Shown in pieces: positions 13,186-50,879 of a DNA stretch of 64,000 nt. The notes below the pieces were generated by a model that saw nothing but the letters and a program-made list of their open reading frames with translations, searched no databases and was not told the DNA's origin. Position numbers and translations under genes: made by a program. Numbering within the stretch: position 1 is the first letter of the stretch; every line of letters starts with the position of its first letter. The stretch spans positions 3,311-67,310 of the forward strand of contig CALVRA010000004.1 in the NCBI GenBank assembly GCA_944358415.1. The letters are read 5' to 3'. Source of the stretch: an uncultured Bacilli bacterium (GTDB lineage: Bacteria; Bacillota_I; Bacilli_A; RF39; UBA660).

Positions 13186-13208
13186 AAAAAGAAGGGATTT
13201 TTCCCTCC
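13186..13208 (-). terminator. Putative rho-independent terminator after the 734-aa gene
   Basis: Minus strand reads GGAGGGA-aaaa-TCCCTTC followed by TTTTT, immediately after the TAG stop. Confidence 0.5.
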
Positions 13209-15412
13209 TAATTTAATAGTTTTTTTATTTCATCTAAGGCACACTGGGCGTCTTCACATTTTAAACCTGTTTTTGAATTATCATATTCTAAGTCAATGGC
13301 TCTTAATTTTATTTGAACTTGATAAGTACTACTTAGTGTATTGGTACCATCAGTCACGGTAGCAACTACAGAGCCATGATAATAAAATATGACAGTAGCT
13401 GTTTTTTCTTTTACTTCGGTGGCTGGTTCGTTATCTTTTTGATAGTAACAAGTGATTGAGCTTCCACAGCCATCTGGATATGTGATAGTTACAGTTCTTG
13501 GATATATGCCTTCATCTTTAAAGGTTGGAACAGTGAAGACTGAAGTTGTGACGTTTTTATTACTTGTTTGTTGAACATTTTTTTCATTGGTTACTCTAAC
13601 CATGATATTATAGGTTGTTCCTTGATTTAAATTATTAAAGGTATAAGTGTTTTTAGTTCCACCATTTACCCAATTTTTACCACCATCTAAAGAGTATTCA
13701 TATTTAGTTATGTCGAAGTTAGATGAAGCATTTGCGACAACGGTTATACTATGAGAGGTGGCAGATGTAGATATATTTAAGGTTATGCTATCATTGATTG
13801 GTTCAATGTTGACATCATAACTATTACTCAACATACTTTCACCATCAGAAACAGTAGCAAGGATGGTTCCACTTTCAGTAAATTGAACTTGGGCTTCAGT
13901 ACTTTTAACAGTGACTGGTGCTTGACCATTCATTTGATAGGTACATGACAAAGTATCTTTACATTCTTCTTGGAAATGAATAGTTATGGTTTTTGGATTA
14001 ATACCTTCTTCAGTAAAGGTAGGTTCAATTAATTCTATTTTAACGCTTTCCATATCAATTAAGTATGGATCTTCTTTAGTTCCTGTTCCACCTGTAATAA
14101 CTGTTTGTTCTGAAAGATATAATGATGGAGCGACAAAAGATGTATTTATTGAGGCATTAGTATAATTTATACTTCCAGGTTTTTGGTCTTTACTAATTAT
14201 AAAGACTTGATTATTATTATCTAAAGTTGGTGTAATAGTCCACATATTACTATTTTCAGGAATGATGCTATAAATCCAGTTAGTGTTTATACATGAAGAA
14301 GTATTATTATTATTTAAACTTAAAGATCCACACTGGTTATTATTTGAATTAGCTCTTATAAATTCTGAGACAGTGATTAGACCAATTTTACCATTCCACT
14401 GAGATGTTTTTTCATCGGTCATTTGATTTTTGATGTCACCGTTGTTGGCATTAATGGCTCCAACATACCAAGCATGGTTAATAATATTAGCTTTATTAGT
14501 AGTGATTTTATTTAAATATGTATTATTCAAGTAAGTGTTTAGTGAGGCATCTTTTAAGACGGTTCCTGAAATATAGCCATTTATATAGTTATTATTAATG
14601 CCCCAGGCATTACATCCGTTATTTCCACTGGCACAGTAAGTTCCTCCTGCACCATTACTAGCTTGGTCTCTTTGACCGGCGGTATCGAAAGCATTAGCGC
14701 TTTCTGCCGATGATCTAATGATTTTGATTGTACCATCTTTTTCTAATGATATGATACGCCATAATTCATCGTTAAATCTAATATAGTTATTAGGGTTGGC
14801 ACCTTTAAAGATACATTTACCGTCTTCTGTATCATCGAAATACATGCCAGAACCTGAGGTTACAACATTATCTGGGGTACATTCTAATGATGATGATGCA
14901 CTATTTTGATTATCTGAGTCAAAAGCAATGGTTGAAAATGTTCCATTATTAAATTCGGCAAAAAGTCTACCTTTGTTTTGAATTGGTTTTGCATCTATTT
15001 TTGAAATAAATTCACGAAGTTTTTGGCCAATATTATTATCTTCATTATTGTTAACATAATACTGGATAGCTTTAACATCAGAGTTTGTATATATGACTGT
15101 TTTAGCCCCCATTTGTTTCATAATTGTTTGACAAAAATTATCGGTTAAATTGATATTACATTCATTATCCTTATAGACTAGCACATAAGGTTTTTCGACT
15201 GTTAGATACTCCGATAAATCATAACGATTAGTGGTTAGATAATTAGCTACAGAGGATAAATCATAAATTGATTCAACGTTATTATGACTATAGCTATTTT
15301 TATAGTTATTTGTTAAATTACTGAACTGAATGAATAGTATGATTAATATTGTTAAGACAAAGGTTGAAACTATTAGGGCTTCAGCTAGTAAAAATCCTTT
15401 TTCGTTTTTCAT
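13208..15412 (-). CDS. Giant prepilin-type (type IV pilin-like N-terminus) surface protein with a non-variable copy of the DGR-target scaffold
   Basis: N-terminal 'KGFLLAEALIVSTFVL' prepilin cleavage/methylation-like motif. Residues ~186-452 ('GANPNNYIRFNDELWRIISLEKDGTIKII...MWTITP...FVAPSLYLSEQTVITGGTGTKEDPYLI') are paralogous to the 310-aa target. Two Ig/FN3-like modules are shared with the 802-aa protein. The C-terminus carries 'EYDNSKTGLKCEDAQCALDEI'. Confidence 0.8.
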   Translation of the reverse strand: MKNEKGFLLAEALIVSTFVLTILIILFIQFSNLTNNYKNSYSHNNVESIYDLSSVANYLTTNRYDLSEYLTVEKPYVLVYKDNECNINLTDNFCQTIMKQMGAKTVIYTNSDVKAIQYYVNNNEDNNIGQKLREFISKIDAKPIQNKGRLFAEFNNGTFSTIAFDSDNQNSASSSLECTPDNVVTSGSGMYFDDTEDGKCIFKGANPNNYIRFNDELWRIISLEKDGTIKIIRSSAESANAFDTAGQRDQASNGAGGTYCASGNNGCNAWGINNNYINGYISGTVLKDASLNTYLNNTYLNKITTNKANIINHAWYVGAINANNGDIKNQMTDEKTSQWNGKIGLITVSEFIRANSNNNQCGSLSLNNNNTSSCINTNWIYSIIPENSNMWTITPTLDNNNQVFIISKDQKPGSINYTNASINTSFVAPSLYLSEQTVITGGTGTKEDPYLIDMESVKIELIEPTFTEEGINPKTITIHFQEECKDTLSCTYQMNGQAPVTVKSTEAQVQFTESGTILATVSDGESMLSNSYDVNIEPINDSITLNISTSATSHSITVVANASSNFDITKYEYSLDGGKNWVNGGTKNTYTFNNLNQGTTYNIMVRVTNEKNVQQTSNKNVTTSVFTVPTFKDEGIYPRTVTITYPDGCGSSITCYYQKDNEPATEVKEKTATVIFYYHGSVVATVTDGTNTLSSTYQVQIKLRAIDLEYDNSKTGLKCEDAQCALDEIKKLLN

Positions 15413-15493
15413 GTTTATCCTCCTTTTATTTTTTATTTACAATTTACCAAATATAAGTCTAATATTTATAGATATTTTTAAGTTGTTTCTAAT

Positions 15494-17542
15494 TTAATAT
15501 GGATAACATAGGCTACCTACTAAATCATATCCTGATGGACAAGTATAATAAGGTTCACTATATGAAGCAGAAATAGTAGTTGTTTTTTGACATTTCATAC
15601 TACTTCCTGAACCTATTTCAGTATAACCTGATGGACAATAATAGTAACTGCTATGATATGTTGCACTTGTAGAATTGCGGCAATAAGCTGTAGGATGATA
15701 TGTGTATGAACCTGGGCTTGCACAATGGTCACCATTTTCAGAATATCTGGAATCATCACATTCATCATAGGACGATTGATTATCAGTATGTGATAAGTTT
15801 CCATTATTACAAATTACAGTTCCAGTAACTCTTGTCCAGTTAGTATAACAGGTTGTTCCAGATTTATTAGGATAACCTGATGGACATGAGTAATATGATG
15901 AGCTATAGGATGCATTTGTTGTGGTTGTTTTTTGACATTTCATACTACTTCCTGAACCTATTTCAGTATAACCTGATGTGCAGTAATAGTAGCCTTCATG
16001 ATATGTGGCATTGATTACCATGGTTACAGTATAGCTACTACTAGTTTTATTGATACCATCTGAAACATTAGCAACTAGTTCCCCATCGTCTGTAAAATTA
16101 ACATCGACAGTAGTTGTAGTTACGTTTATAGTATTGCCATTATTTTTTTGATATGAGCATGTGAGTGTGGTTCCACACCCTTCTGGGAAGGTAATTGTAA
16201 CGGTTTTGTTTTTAGCTCCTGTTTCTTTATAAGTTGGAGCAGCTAAGGTTTTAGTTATAGCATTTTTATTGGCAGTGACAATTTTACCACTTTCAGAGGT
16301 GACTCTTACTTGAACATTATAAGTAGTTGTTTGAGTTAAAGAGGTAAATCTATAAGTATTTGATGTTCCTCCATTAATCCACGTTTTTCCATCTAATGAA
16401 TATTCATATAAGGTTACATTATTACTTATATTATAGTTTTCTTCTGAATCACCGACTTTAGTAGCTGCATTATACCAACCATCCGGAATATATCCTGTGT
16501 TTGCAATGATACGTGGAAGGGTTATTTGACAACTAGTATTTCCAGCTAATATGGTACAACTTTTTGACAAGCTATTTATTGACGATACGTTTGCACCTTT
16601 GACAAAAGTTGCCGTGGCAGTTTTATTTTGTAAAGTTATACTACTTCCTCCACCGCTTGAGCCATTTTGCGATGATATATTTCCTGCTTTGTCTTTGACT
16701 CATATATAATATGTTCCTTGCCCTTTGGGAATAATAATACTTCCTTCTTCTTTAGCTTTTATATCAACTTGATTCCATCCTTCAGCATTTTCGTCTGGAG
16801 TTTTGTTTTCTTCACTGATATAATAAGCTGCGATTCCACTGACGTTGTCAATGGCTTTAATATGTATTTTTGAATTTGGATCAATGGTTATACTATTTAT
16901 TTTGGGAATTTCATTATCAATATTAATAATGTCTATATTGTTAGTGATTATACTGGCGCCAGTTACTCTAGCTTCTAAGGTTGATATTTTTTTAAATACA
17001 GGCAATTCAAAATTACCTTCATGGGCTGTTTGCCATGAACCATTATCTATTTTATATTGGTAAGTATATCCACTACCTAATTTTGGATATTTTATTATAA
17101 CACTTCTTTCGTGAACCCATTTATTATTATTTGGATTGATAACAAAGTCTATTTGATGAACTGTTGATGTCGCACTACATTTATCATTATCAACTATTTC
17201 ATAATTAATATTTTTATCATTATCGATGGTGACATAGATTGTTTTATTAGTGATATCTTCACCGGTTTCAACATCAATGACTGGACTTACAAGTGTGCCA
17301 TTATCTACTAAGTCTTGAACTGGGATACAATATGATCCTGGTTTATTGGTACCAATTGTTTCTTCAATATATATTTTTATAGCATCTGAAATTAATCCTT
17401 CGCTTACTTTATTAGCTTCATTGCCGTTTTGAGCTATTTTATTAATGATTGTTGGCATAATCAATAATAAAAGCAAAGATATTATAACTATTACCCCTAA
17501 AATTTCAGTTAGTGTAAATCCTTTTTTATTCATTTTTATCAC
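15494..17542 (-). pseudogene. Pilin-like adhesin paralog interrupted by one in-frame TGA
   Basis: ORFs 16700-17542 and 15494-16570 are in the same frame. The only stop between them is TGA (16700-16702) in 'GTYYI*VKDKAGN', where the tandem paralog reads 'GTYYVWVKDRAGN' with TGG. Translation between the ORFs continues the homology (VKDKAGNISS...SKSCTILAGNTSCQITLP). Confidence 0.7.
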
Positions 17543-17708
17543 CTATATTTATTATAGTTTTTTTATGAGCTAAAAATTGTCAAATAATTTTTACTATTAT
17601 CTATTTTCTATAATAATTATAAACTATTCAAGGAGGTAATGCAAGTACATTATGAAATAAGGTTTTATTTAAATGAAAGAGAAAAAAGTAAATATTATTA
17701 ATATCTAC

Positions 17709-20117
17709 TTAATTTGGGAAACACAAATTACCAGAAAGCGTATAACCTGATGGGCAGGTGTAATAATCCTCATAATATGTTGGAGTTATTGATGTGGTTT
17801 TTCGACAAGTCATGGAACTGCCACTACCAATTTGGGTGGAGCCACTTGGACAACTATAGCTATATGAAGTGTTAGGATTAGTATACGTTTTGGTTTCTTT
17901 TGTACATTTTGTTGAGCTACCTGAGCCTGTTTTTTTATATCCTGATGGACAGGTATAACTGGTGGAACTAGTTGGTGTTTCAGTCCAAGCTTTATGGCAA
18001 AGATTAGCCGCACTATAACTACTATATTGATTACTGCAGGCACCGGTGTTTTTATAACATTCTGCTCCTGAACCTGAGTATCCTTGTGAAGTTATGGCTA
18101 GGACATTACATTCACAGCTATAGCCTTGGTTAATATAGTTATTACGATAATCACGCCATTTTTGTTTTGACCCTTCTTGGTCATTACATTTAATAGTATA
18201 ATATAGGCTTGGTGAGTGACTACACTGGCATACATCATTATGATCAAGATGACAACCACCAGTACATTTTTTGGTAATTGATTCAGTGGCATTGATGGTT
18301 TCTGTTTTTGTTTTATAGCATTGTGTGGAACTGCCTGAACCTGTTTTTGTATATCCTGGTGGACATGAGTATGTTGTTACTCTATTAGCACTTGTTGTGG
18401 TTGTTTTAGTACATCTTGTGTTACTGCCAGATCCTGATGTTGTGTATCCACTTGGGCAGACATATCTTTCTGGATGATAGGTTGCATATATATACATGGT
18501 AACGTTATAGGTACTACTGACTTGGTTTGTCCCATCACTTACTTTAGCAACTAAGGTACCATCATCTGTGTACTGAACATCGGCTGTTTTAGTGTTTACA
18601 GTGACTTCTGATGAGTTATTTTTTTGATATGTACAAGTATATATATCACCACAGCCATCTGGATAAGTTATGGTTACTGTTTTAGTGGTAGTTCCACTTT
18701 CTTTAAATGTTGGTAAAGGTATGGTGGCCGTTTTTGTGTCTTTATAAGCTATTTTTTGCTGGGTGGTTTGACTTGTGACACGAACGGCAATATTATAGGT
18801 TGTTCCTTGGGTTAATTTACTAAAGGTATAAGTATTATTATTATTTCCATTTTCCCAAGTTTTTCCACCATCTTTAGAATATTCATATTTGACAATATCA
18901 CTTAAAGCAGTAGCTGAAGCAACAACAGTTATTTTATTGGTTGTAGATGTTGTTGAGAGATTAATAGTAATTACGTCTTCTATGACTTTTGAATTTAAAG
19001 TAATATTATTACTAATAGAATATTTAGCATTTGGTTTTCCAACGTTTACATTTCCATTATACCAGCCATCGGTTATATATTTAGGATTTGCTGTAATATT
19101 TGGCAAGGTTATTTGACAACTAGTATTTCCAGCTAATATGGTACAGCTTTTGGAAGTGCTATCTATTGAAGCAACATTTGCTCCTTTTGTAAAGGATGCT
19201 GTAACTATTTTATTTGTTAGGGTGATACTATTATTATTATTTGATGAGATATTTCCAGCACGATCTTTAACCCATACATAGTAAGTTCCCTCTCCTTTAG
19301 GAACTGTAAATGAAGCTTCGATGTTAGCATCAATATCGGTATTTATCCATCCTTCGTCATTAATATCTGGAGTTTTACTATTTTCACTTATATAATATCC
19401 GACTATGCCACTTACTTGATCAATAGCTTTAATGTTTATGTTTGAATTTGGAGCGATAGTTAGGCTATTGATTGTAGGATTTTCATTATCAATATTAATG
19501 ATATCGGCTGTATTATTTATATTTTGTTTGCCTCTTACTCTAGCATACAAGGTTGATATTTTTTTAAATGGATTAGTTATTTCAAAGTTACCTTCATGGG
19601 CTGTTTGCCATGTACCATCATCTATTTTATATTCGTATGTGTTTTGGTCACCTAGTTTAGGATATGCAATAATGACTTTTCTTTCATGGACCCACTTATT
19701 ACCACTTGGATTAATGATAAAATCAATTTTATAAATGGTGGAATCGGCTTTACATTCGTCTTTTTCAACTATTTTATGGGTAATTTGTCCTTTTCCATTT
19801 ATTGTCACATATACTGATTTATTTGATATGTCTTCGCCAGTGGTTATGTCGATGACAGGACTGACTAATTTACCATCATCTATTAGTTCTTGAATCTGAA
19901 CACAGTATGTACCTGGTTTAGTGATATCGGTATTTTCTTCTAGATAATTATCAGTAGAGGCAAAAATAAGATTATCACCTGTGTTACCAGCTTTATCACT
20001 ATTATTAGCAATTTGATTAAGAATGGATGGCATGATTAATAATAATAGCAAAGATATTATAACTATTACTCCTAAAATTTCTGCTAACGTAAAACCTTTT
20101 TTATTCATTTTTATCAC
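17709..20117 (-). CDS. Giant prepilin-type adhesin-like protein (802 aa) with a Cys-rich repeat C-terminus
   Basis: N-terminal 'KKGFTLAEILGVIVIISLLLLLI' type IV pilin-like signal. Ig/FN3-like modules ('KYEYSKDGGKTWENG...GTTYNIAVRVT'). At least six 'CPSGY..(T/S)GSGS..C.K' repeats. Confidence 0.85.
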   Translation of the reverse strand: MIKMNKKGFTLAEILGVIVIISLLLLLIMPSILNQIANNSDKAGNTGDNLIFASTDNYLEENTDITKPGTYCVQIQELIDDGKLVSPVIDITTGEDISNKSVYVTINGKGQITHKIVEKDECKADSTIYKIDFIINPSGNKWVHERKVIIAYPKLGDQNTYEYKIDDGTWQTAHEGNFEITNPFKKISTLYARVRGKQNINNTADIINIDNENPTINSLTIAPNSNINIKAIDQVSGIVGYYISENSKTPDINDEGWINTDIDANIEASFTVPKGEGTYYVWVKDRAGNISSNNNNSITLTNKIVTASFTKGANVASIDSTSKSCTILAGNTSCQITLPNITANPKYITDGWYNGNVNVGKPNAKYSISNNITLNSKVIEDVITINLSTTSTTNKITVVASATALSDIVKYEYSKDGGKTWENGNNNNTYTFSKLTQGTTYNIAVRVTSQTTQQKIAYKDTKTATIPLPTFKESGTTTKTVTITYPDGCGDIYTCTYQKNNSSEVTVNTKTADVQYTDDGTLVAKVSDGTNQVSSTYNVTMYIYATYHPERYVCPSGYTTSGSGSNTRCTKTTTTSANRVTTYSCPPGYTKTGSGSSTQCYKTKTETINATESITKKCTGGCHLDHNDVCQCSHSPSLYYTIKCNDQEGSKQKWRDYRNNYINQGYSCECNVLAITSQGYSGSGAECYKNTGACSNQYSSYSAANLCHKAWTETPTSSTSYTCPSGYKKTGSGSSTKCTKETKTYTNPNTSYSYSCPSGSTQIGSGSSMTCRKTTSITPTYYEDYYTCPSGYTLSGNLCFPN

Positions 20118-20167
20118 CTACTATTTATATTATAACTTATTTTGGTTAAAAATTTAAGATATGAGTA

Positions 20168-21013
20168 TTACTCTTTTAATAAGTTTTCTAGGGGGATTAT
20201 ATTATAGCCTTTAGAAGTTATGTAATTTAGTATGGCATTTAATTCATTATTTAACGTTTGATTTACATCCAAGGATATAATAGCTCCTGGTAATAATGTT
20301 TTTTTAATACTTATTAATGGCCTTTTTTTGATAATGATTTGTGGCATGATAGTAATAGAGTTTTGAATGTTACATGTTTTTAATAAAGATTTATTAGGTT
20401 TTTCGGTATAGCAATAGTTATACAATTGTGGTCCAATATTAGTGATGATAGTTTTCATCCAAACAAAATCACTATCGTTATAGTTTTCATTATTACTTAA
20501 GTTTCCAATTGTATGACCATTTTGAATTAGGTTTATTATTTGATTATGGTGCTTTTCTAAATATTTACTTTCAATAAAAAAGGTGGCTTTGATTTTTTTT
20601 TGGTTTAAAGTATTTATGATATTTGTTAAATCATCTTGAGGGGTTGCTTTAAACATTAAAGTTACATCCATTTTTGTATTATTGCCACTAATTACGTACT
20701 TATCTTTATTTTTATCTAAGGTATTTTGGACTTTTAATGGTTTATAGATTAGTAATTTATCATCAAAGTAACCTATTTTACTCATAGCTTCATAACTTTT
20801 TTGGGTATCGACTTCCTTACCATTAATTCCTGGTATGATAGTATCTTCTTTAATTATAGGTTCTATGGCATTTTCTTTATAACCATCTTTTTTACTTTTT
20901 ATTTCACTTAGTAAGGTGTCACTTAATTTAGCTGTGGTGCTGACTTTTTCTGTGTATATGAAACTGGATATCATTAGTGTTAGTAAACCTATTATTTGAA
21001 AAAATTTTTTCAT
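20168..21013 (-). CDS. Polysaccharide deacetylase-like protein (divergent NodB fold), membrane/secreted
   Basis: 'KATFFIESKYLEKHHNQIINLIQNGHTIGN' resembles the NodB homology domain. Has an N-terminal signal/anchor. Start at the ATG at 21013, after AGGTGAGG. Confidence 0.5.
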   Translation of the reverse strand: MKKFFQIIGLLTLMISSFIYTEKVSTTAKLSDTLLSEIKSKKDGYKENAIEPIIKEDTIIPGINGKEVDTQKSYEAMSKIGYFDDKLLIYKPLKVQNTLDKNKDKYVISGNNTKMDVTLMFKATPQDDLTNIINTLNQKKIKATFFIESKYLEKHHNQIINLIQNGHTIGNLSNNENYNDSDFVWMKTIITNIGPQLYNYCYTEKPNKSLLKTCNIQNSITIMPQIIIKKRPLISIKKTLLPGAIISLDVNQTLNNELNAILNYITSKGYNIIPLENLLKE

Positions 21014-27334: not shown

Positions 27335-27565
27335 CTTTTAATTAAAAAAGTATTATGAATATAAGGGCGTTTTGAACGCGGTACCACCTTATTTTATAAT
27401 ACTTTTATTATCTTTAATTGCTTTAACGGGCATGTCCGTCTTATACTTTTCATATAAGAAGCTCCTAAGTAAGTTCATAATTATGGTTAAAAAGTTTTCA
27501 CCAACCACTTTTTCTCTAAGTAACCTAATAATTATTACTGCTCTTATTCCTTGCTTTTAACTTTA
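27335..27565 (-). promoter_or_regulatory. T-box riboswitch leader, Leu specifier
   Basis: Minus strand carries the T-box core AAGGTGGTACCGCG (plus 27377-27390). This core is enclosed by a long terminator helix (AAGTATTATAAAATAAGG / CCTTATATTCATAATACTT) followed by a T-run. The candidate specifier region ...GAACUUACUUAGG... contains Leu codons CUU and UUA. Confidence 0.85.
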
Positions 27566-27623: not shown

Positions 27624-28274
27624 TTAGTCATCGCTACTACGGCCAAATAATTGAAGCAATCTTAAGAATAGGTTAATAAAATCTAGATATAGTTCTAGGG
27701 CGCCATAAATGGCTAAATTATCTTCTGGAATAACACCTAATTGATTTAATTTAATGATTTGTTGAACATCATAAGCTGTGTATATGACAAAGATGGCAAT
27801 TGCAATTATTGTAATAATTAAATCAAAACCTGAATTATTTAAGAAGATATTTATAATAGAACATACTATTATAGCTATTAAACCTATGAGTAAGTATGGA
27901 CCTACTTTTGTGAAATCTGTTTTTGTTGTAGCTCCTATAAGTGCGAATACGGCAAAGATAATTGCGGCTAATAAGAATACATACATAATTGAACCTAGTT
28001 CATAGGTTACAAATATTGTTGAAAATGTAAGCCCACTTATAGCTGAGTAAATTATAAAGCTAACTATGGCGGTTGCAGGTTTCATTTTAGTAATTCTAGC
28101 TGATAAGAAAATTACTAAAGCAAATTCAAGGATAATTACTAATATGATTGTCCAACTACCCAATAATTTAAACATTGTCTCTGGATGAAGTGATACATAA
28201 TAACCGGTAAAAAATGTTACTAGTAAGCCTATAAACATCCAACCAAATACTTTTGGCATTATTTTATTTGTCAT
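27624..28274 (-). CDS. BAX inhibitor-1/YccA family membrane protein
   Basis: 216 aa with about seven TM segments and a C-terminal 'LELYLDFINLFLRLLQLFG' block typical of the BI-1/YccA family. Confidence 0.8.
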   Translation of the reverse strand: MTNKIMPKVFGWMFIGLLVTFFTGYYVSLHPETMFKLLGSWTIILVIILEFALVIFLSARITKMKPATAIVSFIIYSAISGLTFSTIFVTYELGSIMYVFLLAAIIFAVFALIGATTKTDFTKVGPYLLIGLIAIIVCSIINIFLNNSGFDLIITIIAIAIFVIYTAYDVQQIIKLNQLGVIPEDNLAIYGALELYLDFINLFLRLLQLFGRSSDD

Positions 28275-28343
28275 TTAATTTTTTCCTCCTTTGTATAAGT
28301 ATATCATTTTTAATGATTTTTATAAAGATGTTTTGAATAGTAA

Positions 28344-28373
28344 TAGAAAAACTCGGTATTTTTTCCGAGTTTA
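28344..28373 (-). terminator. Rho-independent terminator immediately 3' of the template repeat
   Basis: Minus strand: ACTCGG-aaaaaata-CCGAGT followed by TTTTT, starting right after the TAA of the TR pseudo-ORF. Confidence 0.65.
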
Positions 28374-28382
28374 TTTGATGAG

Positions 28383-28547
28383 GTATGGATTTGACTGGGT
28401 TCCAGTTCCTCCTGTAATTTGGACATCAGAGGAAAGAGTTATGGCAGGGCGGACCGCGTTGTTCGTATTGTTCGCGTTGTTGTTGTTGACGTTGCCGTTG
28501 TTGTTCACATTGAACACGTTGTTAGAGTTACTAGAATTAGGCGACAA
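28383..28547 (-). repeat. DGR template repeat (TR)
   Basis: 165-nt copy of the 3' end of the adjacent gene. The core is dominated by AAC/AAT codons (pseudo-ORF '...NSSNSNNVFNVNNNGNVNNNNANNTNNAVRPAITL...'). Differences from the VR fall almost exclusively at TR adenines. Confidence 0.88.
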
Positions 28548-28681
28548 GCAAAACAGTCCAAACATATTAGTATTGCCCCATATATTGTGCCAAAAATATT
28601 TTTTCGGCCATGGCGAGGCATTCGCCCCGCTACCAAACTCCTATCGGAGTTTGCGAAATCATTCTATCCACTGTTTTATTC

Positions 28682-29614
28682 TTAACTCAAAGTGTATGGA
28701 TTTGACTGGGTTCCATCTCCACCAGTGATTTGGACATCAGAGGAAAGAGTTATGGCAGGGCGGACCGCATAGAACGCATAGCTCGCGTCGTAGTCGTTGA
28801 CGTAGCCGTTGTTGTTCACAACGAACACGTTGCGAGAGCTACCAGAAGCAGGCGACAATGTCCACCAATGACTATTTGAATCAAACATCCAATCACTATT
28901 CTTACATGTACGATAATTACTATTATATGTACTTAATGTTTTACAGCTTGTATTTGAACATGCTCTTATATATTCACTTACTGTTGGTAAGGCTACTTTT
29001 ACTTTAGATGTTGTTCCTTTTTCATCATTTATTTGATCTTGCATATCATTATTATTCCATGTTACTGCACCTGCATAATATGTAGCTTCTACTATTTGAC
29101 TTTTGGCAACACTTGTTAGACTATAATAATATGTACCATTTAAATATATATTAAGGGTTGCTGGTTGATTCCACTTGTTTGAATTTGATGTGTCCCAAGC
29201 TAAATTATCAGATGTATTTATCTCTTCATCCCTCATTATCTTTATTGTTCCATCTGAATTTATAGATATGATTCTCCAGCCGGCTTTCTCATTATTAAAC
29301 GTTACATAATTATTGGGATTGGCTCCTTTATAAGTGTATTTTCCATCTTCATATTCATCTTTATATAATCCATCTCCTGATGTTACTATATCTACATTAT
29401 CTAATATTGTATCTCCGGTTGTTGGTGGGAAACAGACATTATAAAGTTCATCTATGGCTCCTTGGACGTTATTTGAATTAAGGCCACTTGAAGTATTTGA
29501 ATATGATACTTCATTTGATGGGAAAGTGACTGCTGCACACACCACTACTCCACTTACTATAATTCCGGCAATTATAAATCCTATTAGATTGGTTTTTATA
29601 TATTCTTTTTTCAT
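28682..29614 (-). CDS. DGR target protein (310 aa), membrane-anchored with C-terminal variable region
   Basis: N-terminal TM anchor plus 'FPSNEVSYSNTSSGLNSNNVQGAIDELYNVC'. Scaffold 'GANPNNYVTFNNEKAGWRIISINSDGTIKIM'. The C-terminus 'WWTLSPASGSSRNVFVVNNNGYVNDYDASYAFYAVRPAITL...' corresponds to the VR that matches the TR. Confidence 0.88.
   Translation of the reverse strand: MKKEYIKTNLIGFIIAGIIVSGVVVCAAVTFPSNEVSYSNTSSGLNSNNVQGAIDELYNVCFPPTTGDTILDNVDIVTSGDGLYKDEYEDGKYTYKGANPNNYVTFNNEKAGWRIISINSDGTIKIMRDEEINTSDNLAWDTSNSNKWNQPATLNIYLNGTYYYSLTSVAKSQIVEATYYAGAVTWNNNDMQDQINDEKGTTSKVKVALPTVSEYIRACSNTSCKTLSTYNSNYRTCKNSDWMFDSNSHWWTLSPASGSSRNVFVVNNNGYVNDYDASYAFYAVRPAITLSSDVQITGGDGTQSNPYTLS
28694..28858 (-). 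repeat. DGR variable repeat (VR) cognate to the TR at 28383-28547
   Basis: Collinear 165-nt match to the TR at a 311-nt offset. The variable core is 28769-28849. About 18 of 19 core mismatches are at TR adenines. Confidence 0.88.
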
Positions 29615-29742: not shown

Positions 29743-30018
29743 ATGAAATTGTGTGAAAGTTTGGCAATTAACTTAAAATATTTTTGTAAGAAATATGGAT
29801 TTTCTCAAGAAAAGTTTGCAGAAATTTTAGGAACGACATTATCTTATTTAAATCAAATTGAAAATGGTAAAATTGATGTTAAGTGTTCGACAATTGACAA
29901 GTTTACTAATAATATTAACAATTATGACAAAAAAGCCAAGCTTAAGGCTTGGGATTTAGTTATTTTTGACAAGTCACATATTACTCATTTTTCAAGAATT
30001 GATGAGCGTAATAAATAA
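29743..30018 (+). CDS. XRE-family HTH transcriptional regulator
   Basis: 'FSQEKFAEILGTTLSYLNQIENGK' Cro/C1 HTH. Transcribed divergently from the DGR target. Confidence 0.75.
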   Translation: MKLCESLAINLKYFCKKYGFSQEKFAEILGTTLSYLNQIENGKIDVKCSTIDKFTNNINNYDKKAKLKAWDLVIFDKSHITHFSRIDERNK

Positions 30019-35533: not shown

Positions 35534-35860
35534 TTATTTTAAATCGTCAATATTTTTCTTTAATTGTTTAGCATCTTCACCAAAAATGATTTTTAATTGG
35601 TTATCTATTTCAACAATACCTTGGGCACCCATTTTTTGAATAGCTTCTTTATTAACAAGGTCAATGTTATGAAGATTAACAACAAATCTAGAACTATTTA
35701 CTTCATAATTTATTATGTTAGCAGTGCCACCTAAGTATTCAATTAATTTATTGGCTTCTAATTTAAAATCTTTACTTTTGGCTTTTAAAATAGCGAATGC
35801 TATTATTATTAATACTAAAACTATAATTGCATATTGCCATATCATGTCCATATTTATCAC
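35534..35860 (-). CDS. Membrane-anchored PTS EIIB-like domain protein lacking the phospho-Cys
   Basis: N-terminal TM helix, then 'LIEYLGGTANIINYEVNSSRFVVNL...QGIVEIDNQLKIIFG'. This resembles the glucose-type EIIB fold, but Asn/Ser replace the C-x-TRLR cysteine. Confidence 0.5.
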   Translation of the reverse strand: MINMDMIWQYAIIVLVLIIIAFAILKAKSKDFKLEANKLIEYLGGTANIINYEVNSSRFVVNLHNIDLVNKEAIQKMGAQGIVEIDNQLKIIFGEDAKQLKKNIDDLK

Positions 35861-35904: not shown

Positions 35905-36024
35905 TTAATTTATATCATCAAAAAGTAATTTGATGTCTATTTCTAAAGCATCAGCTATTCTTCCTAAGACTGTTATTGTAAATCCTCTTTGCATTTTTTT
36001 ACTTTCTATTTTAGCAATTTGTCG
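35905..36024 (-). pseudogene. 3' fragment of an XRE-family HTH gene (5' end deleted)
   Basis: The minus frame reads 'RQIAKIESKKMQRGFTITVLGRIADALEIDIKLLFDDIN*', the recognition-helix-to-C-terminus part of a Cro/C1 HTH. There is no start codon, and the fragment abuts the VR relic. Confidence 0.55.
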
Positions 36025-36198
36025 CCTTGTCCTGGTTCTTCTTACTTTGTGTTCGATGTGAATTTGGGTGGCGGCGTCAGCAACTACGGTGGCGTCAGCT
36101 TCAATACGGACGCAGTCCGGCCGCTCGTCTATCTCTCTTCATCGGTTCAAATCACAGGAGGAAATGGCAGTCAATCAAATCCATATGTTTTGGGATAA
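36019..36198 (+). pseudogene. Relic VR / C-terminal fragment of a DGR-target paralog
   Basis: GC-rich island encoding 'LSPCPGSSYFVFDVNLGGGVSNYGGVSFNTDAVRPLVYLSSSVQITGGNGSQSNPYVLG*'. Homology to the TR/VR starts at the same TTGTCGCCT boundary. There is no upstream gene body. Many differences lie at non-adenine positions, so the fragment is decayed. Confidence 0.7.
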
Positions 36199-36220
36199 GT
36201 ATTAAAAAATAGTGAAGGTT

Positions 36221-37228
36221 TTAATTACCAACACTATTTTTCTCTAATAGTTTTAACTCTTTTATAGATAATCCTGTTGCTTTAGAAATGTCATAGATAT
36301 TCATTTTCATATTAAATAAATTTTTAGCTGTTTCTCTTATACCCTCTCTTATCCCCTCTTTTATGCCTTCTTTTTTGCCTTCTTTTATGCCTTCTTTTTT
36401 GCCTTCTTTTATACCTTCTTTTTTTCCCACTTTTCTTCCTTCTATTCGTCCATGTTTGAAGCCATATTCTTTAATATTTTCTAAAACTAACGCATCTAAT
36501 TTTTCTTTCTCCCATGCATGAAGTACAAAGTTACTTTTACTCATATTTATCACATCCTTCATAAATTTTTGTAACTGTTTTTCATTTAATATTTGTTTTA
36601 AAAGTATATACATTTCAGTAAAGGTTTTCGCAGTTAAAGCTGCATTCCATATTACTTCTTTACTTCTTATACCATAAGTATAATATAACTTTTTGTAAGT
36701 TTCAAGACTTCTTATAATTGTTTTTTGTTTTATTGGGTATATTTTTTTATTTTCAATATCATAAAGTATTACTTTTTTACTAATATCTATATCTGATTTA
36801 TGGGCATTTATATTTATTTGATATAAAGAATAATGTTTTAATTTTTTGATATTTTCACCAGTTTCTAAAAGCATACTAGCTAATTTATTTAAATATAAAT
36901 TATTACGTTCCCTAACTATTTCAAATGGCATTTTATTTAATTCTATATCAATGAATATTTGATTATTTATTGATAAATACAAATCGACAATTTTATGATA
37001 TTCATCTTTATTTTCTTTATAAAGTTCGTTATTTAAAAAAGTTATTTTTGATTCTTTTTTGATATTTAAATTTAATAATGAATTTAAATAGTCTTTTAAA
37101 AGATTTTTATTTCTTTGAAAAACACTTTTGAAAACAATATCATATGTCAAATTAATTAGAGTTACTTTTTTATCCAACTCTTTTAAATAGTTTATATTTA
37201 TTTTTTCAATAGTTTGAATAACCATCAC
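36221..37228 (-). CDS. PD-(D/E)XK nuclease family 'transposase-like' protein (PDDEXK_2 / Rpn-like), second copy
   Basis: 'YDIVFKSVFQ', 'VDLYLSINNQIFIDIELNK' and a C-terminal (K/R)EGI repeat tail followed by 'NIYDISKATGLSIKELKLLE'. Paralog of 7660-8559. The two copies share a ~50-nt upstream block. Confidence 0.7.
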   Translation of the reverse strand: MMVIQTIEKININYLKELDKKVTLINLTYDIVFKSVFQRNKNLLKDYLNSLLNLNIKKESKITFLNNELYKENKDEYHKIVDLYLSINNQIFIDIELNKMPFEIVRERNNLYLNKLASMLLETGENIKKLKHYSLYQININAHKSDIDISKKVILYDIENKKIYPIKQKTIIRSLETYKKLYYTYGIRSKEVIWNAALTAKTFTEMYILLKQILNEKQLQKFMKDVINMSKSNFVLHAWEKEKLDALVLENIKEYGFKHGRIEGRKVGKKEGIKEGKKEGIKEGKKEGIKEGIREGIRETAKNLFNMKMNIYDISKATGLSIKELKLLEKNSVGN

Positions 37229-37347
37229 CTCCTATATATTAACATACGATTTTTTTGGAGGTTTTCCTTTTTGTTTTAAAAAATTTTTGGATTAAAAGTA
37301 ATTGTAAGTTTAACTTGTTTAGTGTATTATATTTATGGTGATACTTT

Positions 37348-50644: not shown

Positions 50645-50872
50645 CCTTTAGAAAAAAACTTATAAATTTAAGGACGTTTTGAACGTGGTACCACCTTAAT
50701 TTATAAGTTTTACTTACCTTGTTTAAGTTTAACGCACTTTTTACGTACTTCCCTACTATTATTTCAGGAAGTCGGCTTGTTCAAGCTACTTTCAATATTA
50801 TCTATTATTAGTTTACATCAACCACTAACTTTCTTTAAATAGATAAATATTTACTCCTCTTGGTCTTGGCTT
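50645..50872 (-). promoter_or_regulatory. T-box riboswitch leader, probable Val specifier
   Basis: The minus strand T-box core AAGGTGGTACCACG lies inside a long terminator helix (CTTATAAATTAAGG / CCTTAAATTTATAAG) followed by TTTTTTT. The upstream segment ...GGGAAGUACGUAAAAAG... contains GUA (Val). Confidence 0.8.
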
Positions 50873-50879
50873 TTACACA

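Follow-up and report, generated by a model that had tools for sequence, protein, structure and literature searches.

In diversity-generating retroelements (DGRs), template repeats (TRs) are by design copies that lack a gene body and start at the boundary of the variable repeat (VR), and the integration of DGR complementary DNA (cDNA) on its 5' side is still unsettled. Retrohoming normally needs at least 8 bp of 5' identity, with cryptic sites being used when this identity is removed, as in a VR of Bordetella phage BPP-1 whose first 20 bp had been deleted and at which cryptic 5' cDNA integration took place (Guo et al. 2011, PMC3240598). In one model, the cDNA pairs with single-stranded gaps of 1-2 kb at replication forks (PMC12875486). 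Remnant DGR target genes have been described in isolates of Treponema denticola whose genomes are without the core DGR parts (PMC4891356). In this study we analysed a 64,000-nucleotide stretch of contig CALVRA010000004.1 (assembly GCA_944358415.1; hereafter the window) from an uncultured Bacilli bacterium of the RF39 lineage. At 36019-36198 on its plus strand the window carries a body-less piece of a DGR target gene, here referred to as the relic. Like the Treponema remnants, the relic is a left-over target that is no longer diversified; unlike those, which are whole genes whose reverse transcriptase (RT) and TR were lost, it consists of just 60 codons from the 3' end of a gene, and RT, bAvd and TR are all present in its genome. 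We consider it very probable that the relic is the inert scar of a deletion in a former divergent gene pair. Remnant DGR targets as such are known; the literature searched contained no 3'-only fragment whose break falls on the template boundary.

The window has a single TR, placed in the region 28237-28693 (minus strand) at a distance of ~25 kb from the RT gene and 146 nt downstream of VR1, the VR of a target gene (28682-29614) that matches DUF6273 (PF19789, E = 1.3e-10). TR and VR1 mismatch at 24 of 165 positions, 21 of which are TR adenines, and their similarity begins at the repeat edge 28547/28858 on the minus strand. The first 9 nt of the TR, TTGTCGCCT, also occur as a native LSP motif in some paralogues of the target. 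Alignment with MAFFT showed the relic to be similar to both repeats from this same motif, at 36019, to their common stop position, in register throughout, with one codon inserted relative to the TR and 63% identity to it. The plus frame of the relic translates to LSPCPGSS...NPYVLG followed by the stop codon, and its peptide is 59% identical to the target C-terminus (BLASTP, E = 2e-16). Every invariant or near-invariant residue of the family C-terminus is kept in an open frame, and over the last 42 nt ahead of the final codons the relic shows ~90% identity to paralogous target tails from sister strains.

The composition of the relic is that of a VR. It lies in a GC island (36002-36197) in which 80-nt windows reach 0.625 GC, against a mean of 0.29 for the whole window, and few AAC or AAT codons are left in the cassette. 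Adenine makes up 0.20 of its 180 nt, compared with 0.35 of the TR and 0.23 of VR1. Mismatches to the TR affect 32 of 62 TR-adenine sites (52%) versus 33 of 115 non-adenine sites (29%; Fisher p = 0.003). This pattern marks a mutagenised copy that has diverged further besides. Based on the GC-rich, adenine-poor composition and on the changes falling preferentially at TR-adenine positions, we infer that the cassette would have been written by DGR retrohoming before the rest of the gene was lost, from a TR other than 28383-28547. The lost gene presumably belonged to the DUF6273 family, judging by the similarity of the relic to the paralogue at 28682-29614. The relic therefore resembles the working VR of a DGR target, such as that of BPP-1 mtd or of 28682-29614, in being homologous to a C-terminal VR and its tail, in its composition and pattern of changes, and in starting at the TR/VR boundary. 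It differs from one in having no gene body, promoter or start codon, in its 29% mismatch at non-adenine sites, and in being invariant between strains.

Upstream of the relic, the plus strand contains no gene body; its sole open reading frame (ORF) is a TTG-started frame of 69 codons (35989-36198) whose start lies inside a gene on the other strand. That gene is the remnant of a regulator of the XRE family (Cro/C1-type, Pfam HTH_3) with a helix-turn-helix (HTH) motif. The minus frame ends ...QIAKIESKKMQRGFTITVLGRIADALEIDIKLLFDDIN and stop and corresponds to the last 37 residues of a protein of this kind, a stretch that is almost invariant from I48 to D81 among six intact 84-aa orthologues, which are annotated as HTH_3/HTH_19. 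Codons 1-47, and with them most of the HTH motif and the start codon, are gone, so that unlike the divergent regulators of this family the remnant is cut within the motif, has no complete HTH_3 domain and cannot make a DNA-binding protein.

The junction between the two remnants is exact to the nucleotide. In an alignment of ten sequences the window followed its relatives through ...TTTTAGCAAT, ending at 36018, the last HTH-derived base; the relatives then continue with ATAAT..., and the window, like TR and VR1, with TTGTCGCCT. Base 36019 is hence both the first base of the cassette and the first base common to TR and VR1. No overlap or microhomology was visible at the junction in this alignment, and neither TR-upstream nor gene-body bases stand beside it. 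A resemblance between CTATTTTAGC in the HTH gene and CTGTTTTGC upstream of the TR is weak, 3 nt off register and expected in T-rich DNA, and was not used. The BLAST similarity of the window to each of eight relatives (L001-L006, L087 and L088; loci and contigs are cited by our own numbers) stops at 36018. The same 180 nt and junction were present at 100% identity in contigs from three other samples (L085, L086 and L092), which excludes an assembly artefact. Much of this had been anticipated by an earlier note on this DNA, which described the GC-rich island as a VR plus C-terminal tail without an upstream gene body, fused in head-to-head orientation with the 3' portion of an XRE HTH gene, with homology starting at the same nucleotide as that between TR and VR1. 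Translation, GC scan, alignments and repeat coordinates all agree with that description.

To follow the locus in other genomes, 13 loci from species-representative genomes were collected by means of the nearby pyruvate kinase gene, eight of them from close relatives (85-93% protein identity). Strain-level contigs were retrieved by exact look-ups of the proteins L32, RodA, Bax1-I, HTH-91 and RT; the look-up of the neighbouring 108-aa protein found nothing on record. The HTH gene is intact (84 aa) in L001-L006, L087 and L088. In L001-L006 the similarity spans the 108-aa gene as well as the HTH remnant; beyond the break it picks up again at 36205-36219, where the Rpn-like gene ends. L004 retains a full target-family gene of 371 aa divergent from the HTH gene, and its arrangement provided the ancestral order: the pyruvate kinase gene (pyk), the 108-aa gene and the HTH gene all point one way, the target gene, for a DUF6273-type surface protein, points the other way, and a hairpin separates it from the converging Rpn-like gene. 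The relatives with an intact HTH gene and the full pair of L004 make a deletion the simplest reading of the window. Gauged on L004 or on the intact divergent pair of the window itself (HTH gene 29743-30018 with target 28682-29614; further pairs occur in relatives), the lost piece measured ~1.0-1.2 kb. Its parts were 141 nt of the HTH gene (codons 1-47), an intergenic interval of 89-128 nt that held the promoter region of both genes, and a target body of ~750-940 nt. The earlier note had proposed such a deletion of the promoter region and most of a target gene and had called for a comparison with related strains; that comparison yielded the intact ancestral pair and mapped the end of similarity to 36018.

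Decay of the target gene is common at this place. N-terminal fragments remain in L001 and L087, almost nothing in L088, and a TnpB-like fragment replaces the target in L002. L006 has an N-terminal fragment together with a 36-codon C-terminal remnant, the start of which lies inside the variable region. These represent at least four or five independent deletion or replacement events, with end-points unrelated to the cassette. The deletion seen in the window is absent from all species-level relatives (L001-L006, L087 and L088). In L007 and L008 the place of the HTH/relic/Rpn module is occupied by large repetitive surface-type proteins.

The 3' side of the relic indicates that it was formed in situ. 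Directly after the stop come AAAAATAGTGAAGGTTT and the hairpin, as in the L006 remnant, with which the relic also shares a terminal Gly codon that the other paralogues do not have. The hairpin forms the native 3' end of the locus and is probably a terminator in both directions. It is conserved in L006 and partly in L001, L002 and L004; it was present in both the minimum-free-energy and the centroid folds, although the whole fold was no better than that of shuffled sequence (z = -1.33). The orientation and position of the relic are those of the target gene in L004, L001 and L006. Together with the tail, these features show the relic to be the locus's own 3' end rather than an ectopic insert. 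An insertion of free cDNA, or of a transferred fragment, into the HTH gene would account for the GC-rich part having no counterpart at the locus in relatives. It is nevertheless highly improbable, as the whole target gene, the promoter region and the first 47 HTH codons would then have survived. The coordinates of these and the other features are given in Table 1.

Table 1. Features of the relic locus and of the DGR; positions are those of the window unless a contig is named.
Feature	Position	Strand	Details and evidence
Relic variable-repeat cassette	36019..36144	+	GC 0.54, adenine-poor, VR-like; first bases TTGTCGCCT; alignment to TR/VR1
C-terminal tail of the lost target gene, of family type (..VQITGGNGSQSNPYVLG), with its TAA stop	36145..36198	+	Family alignment
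Deletion junction	36018..36019	.	Ten-sequence alignment, BLAST end-points, TR/VR1 repeat coordinates
XRE-family HTH gene remnant	35905..36018	-	Codons 48-84 of 84 and stop; translation, orthologue alignment
108-aa gene	35534..35860	-	Weak PTS_EIIB match below curated cutoff (Pfam, E = 0.0014); conserved in all relatives
Hairpin (AAAAATAGTG ... CACTATTTTT) between the convergent relic and Rpn-like gene	36205..36241	.	Sequence reading
Rpn-like PD-(D/E)XK nuclease gene	36221..37228	-	Pfam PDDEXK_2, E = 1e-12
Template repeat (TR)	28383..28547	-	165-nt repeat, 85% identical to VR1
VR1	28694..28858	-	3' end of the 310-aa DUF6273 target gene 28682-29614; repeat search, Pfam
Reverse transcriptase	2266-3369	-	YMDD motif; Pfam RVT_1, E = 1e-16
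213-aa ORF between bAvd and RT	3366-4007	-	No Pfam match
bAvd	3979-4323	-	Pfam, E = 1.5e-11
VR2 of the 773-aa target (gene 4602-6923), beside bAvd/RT	4603-4727	-	
TR cassette array	L115:3500-5750, L117:3450-5520, L121:800-2250		Corresponds to window 4603-4727

Four observations weigh against a deletion scar as we have described it. If breakpoints were uniformly distributed, an exact hit on the boundary would be expected about once in 1100 cases (~3 in 1100 if a shift of one base in either direction is allowed). No strain was found in which a full-length gene at this locus bears the relic cassette. The ancestral state was rebuilt from more distant relatives, in which the target genes have AT-rich C-termini. 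Finally, neither the window nor the 124 fetched loci contained a better template for the relic than the TR, so that its cognate TR was not found. Additional searches brought no closer ancestor of the locus or source of the cassette. A metagenome scan with the HTH alignment gave 71 loci, none with a target-family, 108-aa or Rpn-like gene beside the HTH gene. The 59-aa relic peptide had no candidate among 5.8 billion proteins, neither as a near-identical full-length gene nor as a called ORF. The GC-rich part of the relic matched nothing in the window or the 124 loci, and viral contigs contained neither a relative of the RT nor a match to a 24-nt pattern from the relic.

In its present state the relic appears to be inert, having no promoter, ribosome-binding site, N-terminus or matching TR, and showing no variation between strains. 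As a working VR it would need a cognate TR, yet it departs from the only DUF6273-type TR at the 33 non-adenine sites and by the one-codon indel; in place of an expressible target ORF there is antisense HTH DNA up to 36018/36019, and L085, L086 and L092 all carry the same 180 nt. Strain variation was seen only in the VR of the large target described below, and VR1 is likewise identical across three assemblies. We also considered a live small gene, in which the 69-codon TTG frame or the open antisense frame would encode a functional peptide. Both frames are indeed open, and several open frames are usual for GC-rich VR DNA, as over the TR and VR1 here. The promoter scan listed no plus-strand site between 35806 and 36500, no Shine-Dalgarno sequence is visible, and the 69-codon frame has no Pfam match (it is too short for the DUF6273 gathering threshold), no homologue and no counterpart in any species-level relative. 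In the antisense frame no start codon (ATG, GTG or TTG) precedes the one at Met-56 in the HTH protein. A live gene is therefore extremely improbable. A promoter-like site does lie just below the HTH stop codon, at 35897-35869.

The history of the TR itself bears on what the relic may have been. In four sister strains (L099, L101, L102 and L106) the VR1 locus consists of a row of genes, target-A, an 89-aa HTH protein gene (HTH-89) and target-B, and contains no TR. The TR carries the last four codons of target-B (LIK and stop) and its terminator, and the TR tail CTCATCAAATAA with the terminator is identical to that of target-B. The working TR, too, is therefore a cassette that has no gene body and occupies what was the 3' end of a paralogue now lost. 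The 146-nt spacer between VR1 and the TR is GC-rich and has no counterpart in these four strains. Two candidate origins of the spacer were rejected: aligned locally to the HTH remnant and to the interval between target-A and target-B of L101 it scored no better than shuffled sequence and so is no HTH remnant, which would have made scars of one kind out of TR and relic, and it is not homologous to the inter-cassette spacer of the TR array described below (p = 0.14-0.96); the DNA upstream of the relic is not homologous to that spacer either. At VR1, the DNA similarity of the target gene to its L006 orthologue halts at 28857, the VR1 boundary, where GC-rich TR-type sequence starts. Between three assemblies of separate samples (L109 and L110 among them) VR1 and TR do not differ, so they provide no evidence on current DGR activity at this locus, and their description as an active pair goes back only to the adenine-biased mismatches. 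Sequence comparison indicates that C-terminal cassettes of the target family turn over very fast, even without a nearby TR. The last ~60 codons of target-B all differ between L099, L101, L103, L104, L107 and L108 within flanks that are 97-99% identical; the C-termini have a GC content of 0.35-0.43, versus 0.28-0.31 in the gene bodies measured, and the final ~14 codons and the terminator are conserved. In L099 a 65-aa gene (6364-6561 of that contig) was called just upstream of target-A.

A different arrangement of templates was found near the RT in sister strains. L115, L117 and L121 have, between bAvd and the large target gene corresponding to 4602-6923 of the window, a 2.4 kb array of ~11 tandem body-less cassettes. 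The cassettes start with ACGCCGTCG, at the first base of the VR of the large target, end with GGCTACGGCGTCCGCCC, recur with a period of ~158-161 nt or multiples of it, and are separated by a conserved spacer (..GGGATTAATCTAATTAAAGAGG..TTTG). In each of four strains the VR matched one cassette with 9-13 differences, all at adenines. Expressed as identical, adenine and other positions, these matches were 91/13/0 for VR2 of the window against the L115 cassette at 4663, 97/10/0 for L115 (5459), 98/9/0 for L117 (5242) and 98/9/0 for L121 (2089), and three cassette types were used. On these alignments the array looks like a DGR with multiple alternative TRs, at least three of which would have templated the VR of the same gene. 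No description of such TR arrays was found in the literature searched. The window has no array and no TR for VR2, which is thus an orphan fused to the tail of the last cassette. As the last codons of its gene, ..PISYYS and stop, are those of the last array cassette, the entire TR array probably disappeared from the window strain when the VR recombined with that cassette. Across all fetched loci, no body-less DUF6273-type cassettes were found beyond the relic, the TR and the array.

These cassettes raise the question of whether the relic is a former or spare TR rather than a former VR. Its anatomy is that of a TR, a body-less copy of the VR region with the identical first nucleotide. The position of the working TR in the tail of a lost paralogue, with the target-B tail and terminator, is a further parallel, and adenine-poor body-less cassettes do exist in the sister array (L115:3557 and 4021; adenine 0.18-0.19). 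However, the relic is adenine-poor relative to the TR (0.20 versus 0.35), no VR in the window or the fetched loci matches it as a recipient, and its upstream DNA is native HTH coding sequence in place of a TR-type spacer. In addition, its last 12 nt are closer to the tail of VR1 (8 of 12) than to that of the TR (6 of 12), as counted manually on the alignment. We regard an origin as a TR as very unlikely and continue to view the relic as the VR and tail of a lost target.

The age of the relic deserves comment, as the differences from the TR at non-adenine positions and the codon indel had been taken in the earlier note to mean that the copy is old. Both differences are borne out, but the conclusion is not supported: the relic has kept the invariant residues and an open frame, and is 54% GC in a 29% GC genome, and the deletion next to it is absent from the species-level relatives. 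On present sequence it is not demonstrably old. The 29% non-adenine divergence is more likely to reflect a different template TR, given that coexisting alternative TRs differing by this much occur in the lineage. Other parts of the DGR system do vary within this strain cluster, so the relic predates those differences and has been unedited since; unlike the relic, the VR of the large target differs between the window and L115, which shares its sample with L085.

Two explanations can be offered for a break at the very first cassette base, both of which are compatible with the deletion scar. In the first, a full-length target with a normally diversified VR later suffered an ordinary deletion, for instance by replication error or illegitimate recombination, that reached this base by chance. 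Deletions and replacements are frequent at the locus, the L006 remnant has an end-point unrelated to the cassette, and no special mechanism is needed. The exact hit is improbable under uniform breakpoints, as calculated above, and no intermediate has been observed. A chance end-point of this kind is a serious possibility, although we would stop short of calling it probable, and the two-step history as a whole may be held with the same reserve.

In the second, the break occurred during retrohoming or another cassette-directed recombination, which we rate about level with chance, likewise somewhat below an even balance. We can outline a DGR route of this kind. A mutagenised cDNA from an alternative TR would home into a native, AT-rich paralogue at the locus, and its 3' side would resolve normally in the conserved tail next to the hairpin. 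As this gene would have no TTGTCGCCT anchor, the other end of the cDNA would find no homology through which to resolve and would join illegitimately at a cryptic site ~1.1 kb upstream, inside the HTH gene, with the interval being looped out. The junction would then be the physical end of the cDNA-derived tract. Such a one-step scar refines the deletion reading rather than opposing it, and we put it forward tentatively, as possible but not favored.

Several observations fit this route. The break lies exactly on the 5' boundary of TR and VR, with no flanking TR-upstream or gene-body bases; at VR1, too, TR-derived GC-rich sequence starts at that base, with the L006 similarity running up to it. 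The native genes at the locus are AT-rich in relatives, and the gene of L004 does not have the anchor motif (..FWTLGIN..). In no relative was a full-length intermediate seen, and alternative TRs differing at non-adenine sites coexist in the lineage. Cryptic 5' integration is known experimentally for VRs whose 5' homology was removed (PMC3240598), and gaps of 1-2 kb would fit a loop-out of 1.1 kb (PMC12875486). The BPP-1 experiments resemble the proposed event in having a normal 3' side and a 5' side at a non-cognate site. They differ in that the cryptic sites lay inside the truncated VR, whereas the join proposed here would be made ~1.1 kb away, with the loss of two genes' worth of sequence. 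Against the route stand its being a single case, the missing template TR and the lack of microhomology at the junction. The route would also require that cDNAs of this DGR stop at the opening base of the TR, and no natural deletions of this type were found in the literature searched. Polarity rules out the template switch suggested in the earlier note insofar as the RT would have moved onto HTH mRNA: the cDNA strand runs into the HTH sense strand, which would need an antisense HTH RNA as template.

Other features of the window were noted during this work. DGRs usually have their TR where the 213-aa ORF stands between bAvd and RT; this ORF is conserved in all strain-level contigs and has a hydrophobic run near its N-terminus that suggests a membrane anchor. 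A 68-codon ORF (6914-7120, minus strand), flanked by the 773-aa target on one side and by a divergent double-HTH gene (7112-7663) on the other, contains only the conserved N-terminal signal or anchor region of the target family (..SGMNSQNVQDAIEELYDVCS) and is probably another target-gene fragment. Rpn stands for recombination-promoting nuclease, and Rpn-like genes stand beside target/HTH modules at 36221-37228 and 7660-8604 (both minus strand) in the window and at L099:3478-4305. The two in the window share their upstream sequence (8591-8642 and 37232-37283, 79% identical). The one next to the relic has a variable 12-nt tandem repeat (36320-36460) coding for E/K/G/I repeats, and in L085 and L086 it is interrupted by an IS3-type insertion. 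An Rfam scan found no family near the relic, its only matches in the window being two T-box leaders (RF00230) at 27360-27560 and 50667-50876, both on the minus strand, with 136 and 119 bits, which explain a 55-nt repeat at 27345-27399 and 50652-50706. The region 13200-20200 (minus strand) has several large ORFs with long diverged repeats (families D3-D9) of 60-81% identity and a spacing of ~2.5-2.7 kb.

Taken by itself, the relic is a pseudogene fragment and a product of ordinary gene decay, save for the break on the exact first base of a copy unit. Although a single case, a scar broken at the first base of the template offers a concrete and testable clue to 5' cDNA integration. The junction could be the natural footprint of a failed retrohoming event that destroyed both a target and its regulator, which we again hold to be possible but not favored. 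If this is true, it would be field evidence that the 5' boundary of the TR is the physical end of the transferred tract, that DGRs try to capture paralogues without 5' homology, and that collateral deletions are the cost of such attempts. A like event in a row of target, HTH and target genes would leave a VR, a spacer and a body-less cassette, which is a conceivable route for the birth of a new TR. More broadly, the DGR system of this lineage is fluid, with targets decaying independently in each lineage, a TR in the tail of a lost paralogue, and an orphan VR2 whose template is found only in the array of sister strains. If confirmed on long reads, that array would be more remarkable than the relic and would add cassette switching to adenine mutagenesis.

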